64,000 nucleotides of DNA from Dictyostelium discoideum (GCA_000004695.1 CM000153.2:5386250-5450249); one strand, 5' to 3'. Shown: positions 51,328 through 56,396, counted from the stretch's first letter. Numbers and translations are program-made. The notes: a model not told the origin generated them from the sequence alone.

Positions 51328-54300
51328 ATGTTCAAAAAAAAGGTAACAATAATAATTGTAATTTTGGAAAAGAAATTATTAGAATTACAAATGCAACGGA
51401 AGATATTAGAAGAAAAGTTTTATTTAATTTAAAGAAAATAATACCAAAAGATTTTCATTCAAACCATGGAACTAGAACAGTGAAGGATGCACAAAATTAT
51501 TTATTTAATCTTCAAGACCCAGAAAAACTTATTGATTCAAAAATCAAAGAAACTCATCCAATAAATCATAATCATCCATCATTTAAAAAAATAATTGATG
51601 TTATTAAAACATTAAATGATTTTAAAGAAAAAGTTTTAATAAAACAAAAAGAAAATGATAAAGATTTATATTGCAATGAAAATAAAAGTAAAGAGAAAAT
51701 AAATTTGGGTGAATATAGAAAAAATGATTTTAGTTTAGATTCAAAATCCATAACTAGTACAAACACAACCACTTGTTGTTCATCAACATCACCAATAATA
51801 ACTGCAACAATTACTGCAATATCACCAACAATATCATCACCAATAACACAATCACCATCACTACAATCATCATCACCATCATTAATAACAACTTCATCAA
51901 CAACATCAACATCAACATCAACAACAACAACAAAAGTAAAAGAACAAATTGAATTTGAAAATTTAAATAATATGGAAAAATATTTGAATCAATTATATAA
52001 TGGTATTAATGAAATGATTGATTATTATCAAGAGTATATGAATCAATTAGTAAATTATTCAAAAACCAATAGAATTCAAGAGTTTTTAAGATTATTAGAT
52101 AGTAAAGCCACAATAAATAGTGAGTTATTTGAATCATCAGCATTTTATAGAATTCCAAGATCAATTGCATTACATATTTTAGATATGGATGAATTTGGTG
52201 AAAGGTCAAACAAAAGAGGTGATGAACAAAATCATTATGTTTCAATTTTAAAAGATAATAAAAACAATAATTGTACATGTTATGCTAATAAAACAAATTG
52301 TTTAAAACATCGAAGTGATATTGAAAGTGATGAGGGATTTTGGAATTCTTGTAAGACAATTTATTTTAAGAATAATGGTTTTGCACAATTAGAATGTGGT
52401 AAAGAAATGTTAATTTATCAACTATATAAACTATTAAATATACCAATGCCACCAACTGCTATGATTGTAATTGATCAATTGACATTACCAGATTCAAAAA
52501 AGGGTCCAAAAAAGTACTTTATTAATGGTGAAAATGAATCTCCTTTCTATATTCAAGCATCATGGGGAATTGAAGGAAATCTAGTTAATTATAATATGTT
52601 TAAAATTACTCATCCAGATTATAAAATTTTAAATTTAAATTCATTCGCTAAACAAGTATTTGGTTTATTATTAACTTGCCCATCCGATGGTAAATCTGCA
52701 AATTTTATAATTGTACAACATGATAGATCACCTTCTTATAATTTAATTTCAATTGATAATGATCAAGTTTTTGAAGATTCAATTCAAACTATTAAAAAAT
52801 CATCTTCAACAACAACAGTAATTAATAATAATAATAATAATAATAATAATAATAATAATAATAATAATAATAATAATAATAATAATAATAATAATAATAA
52901 TAATAATAATAATAATAATAATAATAATAATAATAATAATAATAATAATAATAATAATAATAATAATAATAATAATAATAATTTATCAAGATTACAAGAA
53001 TTCAGAATTCATTTAAAATCATTACTATTAACATTACCAGAAATGAATTGTAAATTTCCAGAATTATTACAAGAGTTTATTAAATATATAAATCCTCAAT
53101 TTTTAATTATAGATTGGTTAACAAAATTAGAACATTATAATGAAAAGTATTTAAATTTAATTGAAGCAGTTCAATTTATAAGATCAAAATCAAATTATAG
53201 TAACTTTTCATTAACAACAACCACTTCACCAACTTTACCAATAAATAATGAAATTATAGCTTTAAATTTTCAAGACTCAAAGGTACCAATGAAATTAAAT
53301 AAAAATTTAGTTTCTAAAATTCAAATGAGATTAGAAATCATACAGAATTATTTAAAATCACATCCAGAATGTACAATGTTTGAAGTTTTCTCAAAAGTTT
53401 ACCCAATTGCTTATCAATATTATAATGAAAAATTAAAAATTCATCATAATGATCCATTTGAAATGATTTCATTAATTTATAATAAAGAGCATAATGATGG
53501 TGATTTAATTAATGAATCATTTATTATTAGCAGTGGTAGTAGTATTAATGTTGGTAGTAGTAGTGATAATGGTATTTCATCAATTGATTCAGAATTATCA
53601 ACATCTTCAATTTCATCAAATAGTTCATCATCATTATCATCTTCATCACAATTAACAACTGAATTTTTACCAAATCAATTAATAAATTTATTAGATATTG
53701 ATAGAAAAACAATTGGAGAGAATGTTGTAGAAGATATAGTTTTTCAATATAATAATAATAAATCGATTCAATTAGATATAGTTTATAATAGATTAACAAT
53801 TTTAAATTCAATAAGAGCAAATAATTTTAAAGATTCAAAATCAATTATTAAACTTTATCAAATTATTAAATCAATTAACGATATGGAATTTTTTGAAAAA
53901 TTTAAAATAATTTTTAAACAATTTTCAAATGAAAATCCAAGTTTAAAATTAGATTGGTTATATTTAATTGAAGATTGGTTTCCATCTGAATGGAATGATA
54001 ATCAAAAGAAATATCCAACCAATTCAAATGAAATGAAAGGTACATTTTTTGGTAGAAAATTAATACCAAAAGAAATTCATTATCATTTATTTACAAGAGA
54101 TGGTCAATTTATTAGACGTAATAAATATGGTAGAAAAGATGTTTCATGGTATCCAGAGAAAGATCCAATTTGGTATTTTAAAAAGTATCCAGAAATACCA
54201 GGTTATGAATATGCTGCAATTGAATTTATGAAAGGAATTGGTTTAAAAAATACTGTACAATCAGAGTTGGTATTATTCTATGATCCAAATATTGGAAAAT

Positions 54301-56396
54301 GTTATCCAGTTTTAATATCATTAGCTGTACCTGGTAAATTAGTAAAAGAATATTGGAATGATGATGATAATTTCATGTTATTAGATCCACATCATACTGG
54401 TTTATTAATAATTTCATCAATATTGCTATCGGTTGAAGATGGTAAAGAAGATAATTTCATTCTATCACCAGATGGAAAATATTTAACACCAATTGATAAT
54501 GATCATTGTTTTATACCATCAAGTATTTGGGAAAAGAATTTCATTTCAGTACTACATGAAAAGTTAATGATGAAATCAATACTTTTCTCTTTACCAATAA
54601 TGAATAGTTGGATAGCAACAAGTGTTAAAAAACAAATTACTTCAATTGATTTAAATCAATTCTTAAAAGATTGGCTAGAGAAATTGGTTAAACTCTCTAT
54701 TCTATTTCAAGAATTATTACCATCGAATGAAATTGATCAACTTTATAATGAACATGGTAGTATTCTAAGAATTCCAATCTCATTAGAAACTATAAAATCA
54801 ATTTATTTAAATCTTTATAATTTATCACATTTCTTTAGAAATTCAATGGTAAATACATATTTTGATCTTTTTAAAAGATTAGATCCTTTTGTTGCTACCA
54901 AATATCAATCATTATTTTTAATAAATAATAATAGCAATATCAATAATAATAATCAATATAAATGTTTAGAAGATAGATTTAAATTCATTACAAATGGATT
55001 ATTTAATCAAACTACAATTCCAAATTCAAAAGAATCAATTAGAGAAACTGCAATCAATAGTAGACAAATTGTTAAAATTATAAATATTCCAACTCAAGAT
55101 CTAATTGGTGAAAGTGCAAAAATTAAAACTGATCCATCATTCGCTTTGGATCATTTGAAACATTTAATTCAAACTCATAAAGAAATTAAAAAGAATAATA
55201 AAACACTTTTAGGTAATGGTGAAATGATAAATCCTGAAAATTTTAAAGGTCAAAAAAAGAGTAAACAATTTGAAATTCTTTCTGAATCATTTTCAAAAAA
55301 TGATCAATTTGCTGCCTATGGTTTATCACTTTCTGATGGTTATTTTGATAGATTAAAACAAACTTGTCACATTCAATTTTTAGATTTAAGAAATTGTGAG
55401 CTTTTAACAAATAAAGCAATTGAACAAATTGTTAAATTATTACCAAAATTATTATATTTAAATATTACTGGTTGGAAATCTTTAAAAAATATTTGTTTTT
55501 CACATTGTCAATATTCATTTGATATTACAAAGAATTTAAAACAAATTAATCCATTAGATTTTTTCAAATATTACTCTGAAAATCAAATTAAAATTCAAAA
55601 AACATTAATAGAAAGATTAGTTATTAATGATTGTCCATCATTAGAACTTGTTGATTTATATTTTTCAACACCATTTCTAAAGAAACTTGATTTAAATAGA
55701 AATCAAAAACTTGAAAAGATTATTGGTTTAAATTATGATATTATTATAAATTCAAATAATAATAATAATAATAATAATAATAATAATAATAATAATAATA
55801 ATAATAATAATAATAATCAAAATAATAATAATCAAAATAATAATCAAAATAATAATAATATTATAAGTTTAGAAAATCAATATTTAATAACAACAAAGAA
55901 ATCTTTACAACATCAAACAATTATTTCAAAAAGATCATTAAATATTATTGTTATTGGTGATAAAGGTGTTGGTAAATCATCAATAATTGATAGGTTAAAA
56001 GAAATTGAAACATTCCCAGAGATAATTTTTCATGAAACAACCTTTAATATTGAATTTTCAAATCAAGTTGAAAGTGAAATCTATTCAAGAATCAATTGTT
56101 TTTGTTTTTATAGATTTTTCATCTTTGTGGTTTATGATAGTCCTTCCTCTTTTATTAATTCTACCAATTGGATAAAATCATTTAAAAGCAAAAAGAATTT
56201 CAACTCTATCCCAATGGCTTTAATTGGTAATAAAGATGACCTATACAATGAAAGTGGTCATATAGATTTTTGTAATCAATATCATTTAATTAATTTTCAA
56301 AAATCAGCTAAAAATAATGTTTCCTTTTATGATTTATTTAATTGTTTCATTATTGGAAGTAGTAAAAATTGCTCAAATGAAAATCATCATATTTAA
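51328..56396 (+). CDS. Giant multidomain protein (about 1660 aa). It has a Ser/Thr-rich N-terminal region, two atypical kinase-like segments with HxD....N / IDND motifs, a long poly-Asn linker, leucine-rich repeats and a C-terminal Ras/Rab-like small GTPase domain. Proposed structure: join(51328..51342,51435..56396)
   Basis: The main ORF 51480..56396 starts at a GTG in the track. Its frame is open upstream to about 51324. A possible 5' exon ATGTTCAAAAAAAAG (MFKKK) with a gtaaca donor and tttaaag acceptor restores an ATG start in phase 0. The alternative is the internal Met (MEKYLNQ). Motifs: FIIVQHDRSPSYNLISIDNDQVF and LDPHHTG...NFILSPDGKYLTPIDNDHCF (kinase-like catalytic/activation-loop pattern). 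LRR-like LDLRNCELLTNKAIEQIVKLLPKLLYLNITGWKSLKNI. GTPase G1 IVIGDKGVGKSS, G3 region, G4 LIGNKDDL. Confidence 0.65.

Follow-up and report, generated by a model that had tools for sequence, protein, structure and literature searches.

The window analysed here, a 64,000-nucleotide stretch of the Dictyostelium discoideum genome (GCA_000004695.1 CM000153.2:5386250-5450249, with positions counted from its first letter), carries a giant gene on the + strand. We propose, with a probability of about 0.7, that this gene encodes a chimeric signalling enzyme of 1,685 amino acids, in which a conserved N-terminal helical region would be followed by two tandem kinase-like domains (D1 and D2) resembling type II phosphatidylinositol (PI) 4-kinases (PI4KII), a linker, a short stretch of leucine-rich repeats (LRR) and a Rab-like GTPase (G) domain that is present only in dictyostelids. 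The proposal is built on the fold of the kinase-like region, the homology between its two halves, the conservation of their motifs, the distribution of the family to which they belong and a gene model obtained by orthology. Residue numbers are those of the 1,685-residue model, obtained by adding 47 to the translation that begins at a GTG codon (the GTG-ORF, where ORF is open reading frame); D2 numbering is used where stated.

Tandem kinase-like domains and their predicted fold

The kinase-like region comprises the following features.

51957-53506, + strand: kinase-like domain 1 (D1), split by a tract of 53 Asn, recognised by homology to D2
52686-52703, + strand: D1 catalytic loop DGKSAN, which aligns with DGKEDN of D2
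52749-52772, + strand: D1 SIDNDQVF, equivalent of the kinase DFG motif, from alignments and motif scan
52824-52982, + strand: (AAT)53 poly-Asn insertion after IDND of D1, from Tandem Repeats Finder (53.3 copies, 100% match)
53877-54920, + strand: kinase-like domain 2 (D2), residues 847-1194, with a PI4KII-like fold in the predicted structure
54180-54182, + strand: D2 Lys948 in YFKKYPE, predicted ATP-binding beta3 lysine, invariant in the D2 alignment A2
54438-54455, + strand: D2 catalytic loop DGKEDN (Asp1034, Lys1036, Asn1039), Asp and Asn invariant
54489-54512, + strand: D2 PIDNDHCF, with Asp1053 as predicted metal-binding aspartate, Asp invariant

D1 and D2 align as tandem paralogues. In BLASTP they match over 90 residues with an E value of 1e-7 (DGKSANFIIVQHDRSPSYNLISIDND against DGKEDNFILSPDGK----YLTPIDND), and a family profile of D1 compared with one of D2 by hhalign gives a probability of 100% and an E value of 4e-55 over 288 columns. 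A preliminary description of this DNA, made from the sequence alone, had seen kinase-like motifs in two peptides, both of which are present (VQHDRSPSYNLISIDNDQVF at 52713-52772 and NFILSPDGKYLTPIDNDHCF at 54453-54512), and had read in them a compressed catalytic loop of the form H.D....N ... IDND. The kinase idea holds, the model of D2 being PI4KII-like, but the loop had been misplaced: according to the alignments of D1, D2 and the family and to the model, the real loop, DGKSAN or DGKEDN, lies just upstream, and the H.D....N string of D1 falls inside a four-residue insertion that separates this loop from IDND. The distance from the catalytic-loop Asn to the IDND Asp is 18 residues in D1 and 14 in D2 (Asn1039 to Asp1053), the equivalent spacing in PKA being 13 residues, and on these alignments it is normal for kinases, not compressed.

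The residues that would be needed for catalysis are strongly conserved. In an alignment of 32 D2 sequences with a mean identity of 31% (A2), the columns K102, P105, D188, N193, D207, M242 and W266 (D2 numbering) are invariant and E111, N208 and D209 are nearly so; K102, E111, D188, N193 and D207 are K948, E957, D1034, N1039 and D1053 of the full-length protein. The Asp, Asn and Asp are likewise invariant in all 41 members of a mixed set of D1 and D2 sequences (A5), the DGKEDN loop is identical in three metagenomic relatives (P0001-P0003), and 80 of the 152 proteins scanned have two intact DxKxxN...IDND motifs. D1 of the window gene keeps YFK, E, DGKSAN and IDND. Both D1 and D2 are predicted to retain a full catalytic set, namely the beta3 Lys, the alphaC Glu, DxKxxN and the IDND Asp, if the roles that we assign to these residues from kinase topology and from the secondary structure of the model are correct, and on the strength of this set both domains would be expected to bind ATP and transfer phosphate.

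One or both domains might instead be non-catalytic pseudokinases in a protein that serves as a scaffold. This would fit the insertion of 53 Asn directly after IDND in D1 of the window gene, and it would fit the degeneration of D1, with loss of its catalytic Asp residues, in some bacterial members of the family and in the paralogues P0019 and P0024. D1 and D2 of the window gene, however, both retain the Lys, Asp, Asn and Asp, and the (near-)invariance of the catalytic residues across a family with a mean identity of about 31% points to selection for catalysis, so that we regard this alternative as unlikely. P0019 and P0024 form a dictyostelid paralogue clade in which D1 has lost its catalytic Asp (PKENHF ... 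SIKND) and D2 is intact; by their motifs they are a pseudokinase-kinase tandem, unlike the window gene, in which both copies look competent. The tract of 53 Asn sits where the activation segment of D1 would be. At the same site D. citrinum has a different, shorter insert rich in Ser and Thr, and the (AAT)53 array is absent.

An AlphaFold check of the kinase fold, as proposed in the preliminary description, was positive. The AlphaFold2 model of D2 computed from the 32 sequences of A2, which replaced an unusable one computed from a 4-sequence alignment (predicted local distance difference test score, pLDDT, 44), has a pLDDT of 93.3 and a predicted template modelling score (pTM) of 0.89. It shows a bilobal protein-kinase-like fold with a C-lobe of the PI3/4K type. 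In D2 numbering, K102 lies in strand E99-103, which is followed by helix H108-121 bearing E111, and after D188-N193 come strands 194-196 and 203-205, followed by D207; in the model, the order of the elements is the one expected for a beta3 Lys, an alphaC Glu, a catalytic loop and a DFG equivalent. A Foldseek search of the PDB with the D2 model returned PI4KII beta and alpha as the best matches, with a probability of 1.00. Actin-fragmin kinase (1cja), CotH (5jda), PIKKs, Fam20, HipA and Legionella MavQ (7m7a) are clearly more distant than PI4KII, and no relationship to any of them at the sequence level was seen when the PDB was searched with family profiles. In the viral library BFVD, Foldseek found only distant PI3K/PI4K-like and eukaryotic protein kinase (ePK) matches and no close relative.

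Traces of the same relationship are seen in Pfam. The model PI3_PI4_kinase (PF00454) matches D1 of the D. citrinum orthologue (P0007) with an E value of 0.002 and 18.5 bits at profile positions 154-234, the C-terminal third of the model, which covers the catalytic region; it also matches one of the 32 sequences of the D2 set (E 6.7e-4), and DUF4135 gave a single match (E 0.0077). We think it probable that D1 and D2 belong to the PI3/PI4-kinase superfamily, and that within it they are structurally nearest to the type II PI 4-kinases.

Several points weigh against this reading and against the view of the protein that we build on it. Membership at the sequence level fails, the 18.5 bits of the D. 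citrinum match comparing with a gathering threshold of 27.1 bits for PF00454, and in the window protein itself a Pfam search found no PI3_PI4_kinase match at E <= 1. Neither a D2 profile nor one of the catalytic core found a kinase among the PDB sequences. The link to PI4KII is drawn from one predicted structure, that of D2, and the fold of D1 is taken from its homology to the modelled D2. In addition, a best structural match that is so clearly PI4KII favours a lipid over a protein as substrate, and kinase folds are also able to AMPylate or glutamylate.

The substrate is where this matters most. If D1 and D2 were true PI 4-kinases, their product would be PI4P or a related lipid, formed at a membrane picked by the G domain and the LRR, and the structural match is what would be expected. 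We consider this possible but, on balance, rather unlikely. The type II PI 4-kinases (PI4K2A/PI4K2B; PDB 4pla, 4hnd, 4wtv) are only 16% identical. Their defining feature is a CCPCC palmitoylation motif within the kinase domain; the window protein has no such insert and no Cys cluster in either D1 or D2, the cysteines of D2 being isolated ones. The catalytic loop of PI4KII is DRGNDN, whereas here it is DGKxDN with an ePK-like Lys. The Pfam PI3_PI4_kinase threshold is not reached, the partner domains in the family are protein-binding repeats and F-boxes, and, unlike in PI4KII, the kinase occurs as a tandem pair within a protein of 1,685 amino acids together with LRR and a G domain. Because of the ePK-like Lys in DxKxxN, the missing PI4KII palmitoylation motif and the protein-binding repeats found across the family, we slightly prefer a protein to a lipid as the substrate of the proposed enzyme. 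D1 and D2 are a structurally defined new branch of an established superfamily, set in a novel architecture, and their family adds to the PI3/4-kinase-like superfamily a large branch that is visible only through structure prediction.

Linker, LRR and a G domain lacking switch II

Downstream of D2 the gene encodes the following features.

54927-55754, + strand: conserved post-kinase linker and about four short cysteine-containing LRR-like repeats (repeats 55368-55730), from jackhmmer
55935-56348, + strand: C-terminal Rab-like G domain, from Pfam Ras and matches to Rab35 and Rab22
55956-55979, + strand: G1 motif GDKGVGKS, from translation and PDB alignment
56070-56138, + strand: ESEIYSRINCFCFYRFFIFVVYD in place of switch II, DxxGQ absent, from the gap in the Rab35 alignment
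56229-56240, + strand: G4 motif NKDD, from translation and PDB alignment
56304-56312, + strand: G5 motif SAK (residues 1656-1658), from translation and PDB alignment

The preliminary description had placed an LRR-like stretch after the kinase-like region, and this is supported. An LxxLxLxxC pattern is visible in the repeats (HIQFLDLRNCELLT..., LLYLNITGWKSL..., LVINDCPSLELV..., LKKLDLNRNQKLE...), and the stretch is colinear with the LRR-bearing region of the homologues, in which the significant LRR arrays lie further towards the C-terminus. The Pfam matches are below threshold (LRR_4 with E 0.014 and 16 bits against a cut-off of 27; LRR_6 with E 0.023 and 15.2 bits against 23.4). A jackhmmer search with the linker and LRR region recovered at least 60 members of the family.

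The C-terminal Ras-type domain with GDKGVGKS and NKDD is likewise as described. Pfam Ras matches over its cut-off of 21.6 bits both in the full protein (E 2e-8, 34.4 bits) and in the isolated domain (E 6.8e-11, 42.5 bits), and Ras and Roc, both at the C-terminus, are the only Pfam matches of the full window protein; an NCBIfam search of the protein gave nothing relevant. The best 60 PDB matches are small GTPases, nearly all of them Rab, Ypt or Sec4, with two K-Ras and a few low-complexity artefacts caused by poly-Asn. Rab35, Rab22A and Ypt are the nearest solved structures and the best sequence matches, over GTG-ORF residues 1488-1623 (1535-1670 in the revised numbering). With the Rab GTPases the domain shares G1 (GxxxxGKS), G4 (NKxD) and G5 (SAK), the last of which the D. 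purpureum paralogue does not retain. Unlike the Rabs, it is fused to a giant protein, it lacks a prenylation motif at its C-terminus (...NENHHI) and its switch II DxxGQ is replaced by a shorter stretch containing NCFC.

This replacement is shared by all four dictyostelid proteins that have the domain. The G3 motif DxxGQ is absent from each of them, and in the Rab35 alignment a gap stands opposite WDTAGQERF. The sequence found instead, ...SRINCFCFYRFFIFVVYD, keeps NCFC in D. citrinum, D. purpureum and P0024, and its conservation as protein indicates that it belongs to the coding sequence rather than to an intron left unspliced. The idea that such an intron hides DxxGQ was rejected, the stretch being shorter than in Rab and conserved as protein in four species; judging from the DNA, removal of an intron would not bring the motif back. 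With the P-loop and NKxD retained and switch II lost, the domain may bind nucleotide without classical switching. Together with the LRR it could act as a targeting or regulatory module for the kinases. Among about 150 representatives of the family the G domain occurs solely in the four dictyostelid proteins. A G domain without switch II matters for counts of Dictyostelium small GTPases or of Roco-like proteins.

The order of kinase, LRR and Ras-superfamily domain had led the preliminary description to propose a reverse-Roco layout, together with the compressed kinase loop and a 15-nt first exon encoding MFKKK. The order itself is real. Roco proteins (LRRK2, Dictyostelium GbpC/Roco4) are likewise large and combine LRR, a Ras-like G domain and a kinase, the LRR stands directly N-terminal to the G domain as it does in them, and Pfam Roc matches the G domain with 30.1 and 36.7 bits, over its cut-off of 27 bits. 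These scores are nevertheless below those of Ras, and the best solved matches are Rabs. No COR domain was found: about 27 residues remain after G5, and there is no Pfam match past the G domain. With neither a COR domain nor room for one, the protein is not a Roco. Its G domain is terminal, Rab-like and devoid of DxxGQ, and its kinases are N-terminal and PI4KII-like, in contrast to the TKL-type ePKs of Roco proteins. Adding that the catalytic loop lies elsewhere and has canonical spacing, and that the proposed exon and intron do not agree with related sequences (see below), we consider the layout as originally proposed very improbable, its order of domains apart. The preliminary description had also overlooked that the kinase domain is duplicated in tandem, that the G domain has lost switch II and that the family occurs in amoeba-dwelling bacteria.

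The 5' end of the gene and its locus

Our best gene model joins 51221-51224 to 51343-56396. Its features are as follows.

51221-51224, + strand: exon 1 (proposed), ATGA, that is Met and the first base of Ser2, from homology to the D. citrinum locus L037
51225-51342, + strand: intron (proposed) of 118 nt with a G+C content (GC) of 8.5%, GTAATG...AAAAAAAAG, from the junction and the DNA alignment
51343-56396, + strand: exon 2, the remaining coding sequence including the stop codon, from ORF and translation
51366-51437, + strand: conserved N-terminal motif GKEIIRITNATEDIRRKVLFNLKK, from comparison of homologues

The preliminary description had recognised a giant ORF on the + strand, and this ORF is real: it is uninterrupted up to a TAA stop at 56394-56396, and its length at a GC of about 20% excludes a chance ORF. 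The minus strand holds only two low-complexity ORFs of about 90 amino acids each. The ORF lister starts the gene at GTG 51480 (1,638 amino acids). However, the frame is open further 5', and translating this upstream part gives NNNNCNFGKEIIRITNATEDIRRKVLFNLKKIIPKDFHSNHGTRT, in agreement with the N-terminus of the D. citrinum orthologue KAN0006617.1 (P0007), which is about 85% identical over its full length. The GTG aligns to GTA in D. citrinum and is thus an internal Val codon.

In D. citrinum the annotated gene is 5,093 nt long for 1,659 codons, so that an intron of 113 nt is needed, and it falls right after ATGA: the junction reads ATGA|GTAATT...AATAG|GCTACCAC and yields MSYHNNNNC. When the window is aligned to the D. 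citrinum DNA, the 5' flank and ATGA|GTAA are kept (window 51221-51226), the AT-rich stretch of the intron is the sole poorly conserved part, and beyond an AG|G acceptor at 51341-51343 near-identity resumes. Joining 51224 to 51343 gives, in frame, MSNNNNCNFGKEIIR..., parallel to MSYHNNNNCDFGKEIIR of D. citrinum, and we infer that the product of 1,685 amino acids begins with MSNNNNCNFGKEIIR. A point against this model is that the 4-nt exon 1 takes its support from the automated annotation of the sister species.

The first exon of the preliminary description, MFKKK with its start at 51328, does not stand: this ATG aligns to ATTTTTT in D. citrinum, is thus not conserved, and lies inside the intron proposed here. 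Nor does its intron at 51343-51434, which encodes GKEIIRITNATEDIRRKVLFNLKK, a motif conserved in D. citrinum, in D. purpureum (XP_003287508), in P0024 and in the bacterium Ca. Paracaedibacter acanthamoebae (GEEIIRLTNAQVDVRRQVLYELE), its GKEIIR...LKK pattern recurring in the last three. Inside this motif the window and D. citrinum differ five times, each time at a third codon position, and a sixth difference, the GTG/GTA at 51480, lies just downstream. A variant in which the A8 run at 51334-51341 is really A9, so that ATG 51328 would be in frame, was dropped, since ATG 51328 is not conserved and ATGA|GTAA is. The annotation is to be corrected accordingly, to a gene model with a 4-nt first exon. 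There is a perfect T52 run at 51043-51094, 5' of the gene start, and a second T-rich run (about 80% T) at 51270-51326, within the proposed first intron; errors of length in the assembly are likely at these tracts.

The nearest relative outside the dictyostelids comes from a bacterial endosymbiont of amoebae, and the locus could be suspected of being bacterial contamination or a very recent, non-functional insertion. We give this practically no credence. The gene region has a GC of 18-22%, like its host, and poly-Asn tracts typical of Dictyostelium; the window as a whole, with about 14-27% GC, poly-Asn tracts and very long T runs, is of typical Dictyostelium composition. The 5' end is predicted to be spliced, its coding differences from D. 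citrinum are mostly at third codon positions, and there are paralogues in D. purpureum. The D. citrinum locus (L037) is moreover syntenic, a large + strand gene lying directly upstream in both species. In the window this neighbour is a giant ORF at 43897-48801 (+ strand, 1,634 amino acids) in which SNF2-type helicase motifs (LADEMGLGKT, DEAQ) and a C3HC4 RING (CAICQE...CGHSFCYDC...CPICR) can be seen by eye, and which resembles SHPRH or RAD5. That it might be a tandem paralogue of the kinase gene was rejected, as it gave no match in BLAST or with hidden Markov models.

A family of amoebae and their intracellular bacteria

D1 and D2 belong to a large family for which neither Pfam nor NCBIfam has a model and whose members are named "hypothetical" or "uncharacterized" in the databases. 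Word-indexed homologue searches gave only 3-4 metagenomic relatives. An exhaustive profile search of cluster representatives (clusters at 50% identity) gave 979 representatives at E <= 1e-3 and 169 at E <= 1e-30, most of them 1,500-3,000 amino acids long with two matched stretches. No description of the family was found in full-text literature searches, nor in a survey of the Legionella pan-kinome (PMC9758233) or a comparative genomic study of Acanthamoeba endosymbionts (PMC5751055). The named amoebal members are from D. citrinum, D. purpureum (two clades) and Naegleria gruberi (XP_002671568), with a further protein labelled D. discoideum. The named bacterial ones are WP_038465080.1 of Ca. Paracaedibacter (Odyssella) acanthamoebae and proteins from metagenome-assembled genomes (MAGs) of Paracaedibacteraceae, Alphaproteobacteria, Dependentiae and Burkholderiales.

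The similarity extends well beyond the kinase-like domains. The window protein has colinear BLASTP matches to at least 20 family members, and the N-terminal region and the post-kinase linker and LRR are also widely conserved. The Paracaedibacter protein WP_038465080.1 (1,715 amino acids, 'hypothetical protein') is a true homologue, 38-43% identical to the window protein and colinear with it over the N-terminal region, D1, D2, linker and LRR (GTG-ORF residues 172-1388, to which 47 is added in the revised numbering). The giant proteins of the amoeba-dwelling bacteria share with the window protein the DGKxxN and IDND motifs; unlike it, they have no G domain, and carry F-box, Sel1, ankyrin or long LRR arrays instead. 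Among the bacterial and metagenomic members together, the partner domains are F-box, Sel1, ankyrin, PRANC and long LRR arrays, a set of modules that is common in effectors directed against eukaryotic hosts.

A scan of prokaryotes (one genome per species, motifs NPEDGKPD / IDNDHAF) confirmed 32 loci, in Alphaproteobacteria/Holosporales/Paracaedibacteraceae, Chlamydiae, Dependentiae and gammaproteobacterial MAGs. Eight copies are on a single 2.45-Mb chromosome of a gammaproteobacterial MAG (OZ220716.1), seven of them being L024, L026-L029, L031 and L032, and several are clustered between 1.25 and 1.36 Mb; the pattern resembles the expansions within single lineages that are typical of effector families. 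Metagenomic homologues with 35% GC (L002, ENA ERZ27256376 k141_263971, ~4441-7515, and also L001, L003 and L004) are split into several ORFs with changes of frame, and about 2.6 kb upstream lack any ORF of at least 100 amino acids. One of the breaks is an apparent in-frame stop where relatives have a conserved Trp (IENIY* against IHNIYWKAH). The split ORFs could be pseudogenes, assembly errors or the result of an alternative genetic code.

In Naegleria gruberi XP_002671568.1 (P0017) the tandem PI4KII-like domains and LRR are followed by a C-terminal Pkinase domain (Pfam E 3e-52), which by this match is a different eukaryotic output domain at the site that the G domain occupies in Dictyostelium. 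When 117 D2 domains are arranged in a neighbour-joining tree, the four dictyostelid sequences with a G domain form a single clade, with Paracaedibacter P0014 + P0018 as its sister and Dependentiae P0021 next, and Naegleria is placed elsewhere. A second dictyostelid clade, P0083 (D. purpureum DICPUDRAFT_24970) with the unlabelled P0095 and P0140, has FNIP repeats, not LRR and a GTPase; in the tree it is well separated from the clade with the G domain and is close to a Paracaedibacteraceae MAG. The existence of two clades could be explained by several transfers or by an old amoebal family.

These data suggest an old gene transfer between amoebae and their intracellular bacteria, followed by lineage-specific fusions at the C-terminus. 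The N-terminal region, kinases, linker and LRR are the core of the family, which apart from the amoebal genes is known mostly from amoeba-dwelling bacteria and is expanded in those that are obligately intracellular. Judging from the tree, the transfer was most likely from bacterium to amoeba, in which case it would have come first, and duplication and fusion to the host Rab-like domain afterwards. This direction is weakened by the tree itself, which has no support values and in which most leaves carry no taxon label. It could also have been the reverse, an old amoebal family having been donated to the symbionts, as the presence of at least two clades in dictyostelids may indicate. Under transfer into amoebae, the patchy amoebal distribution and the lineage-specific C-terminal fusions make the family a clear example of a transferred gene whose domains were afterwards shuffled.

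Our most far-reaching suggestion, which we put forward only tentatively, is that D1 and D2 represent an unrecognised kinase-like family (about 1,000 clusters) that at least four lineages of amoeba-dwelling bacteria share as an effector module aimed at their hosts and that has repeatedly been captured and rewired by amoebae. If this is true, Dictyostelium would have joined it to the Rab-like G domain and to FNIP repeats as output domains, and Naegleria to a conventional protein kinase. The captured module might, for example, have been domesticated for signalling as an enzyme, or it might serve as a decoy or sensor where host and symbiont are in conflict. Its chemistry could then also prove to be non-canonical, as for SidJ and SelO. 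The module is present in many copies in Paracaedibacter, Chlamydiae, Dependentiae and uncultured Gammaproteobacteria. These carrier bacteria are not genetically manipulable, whereas Dictyostelium is genetically tractable, and the gene described here therefore offers a route to the substrate and function of the module.

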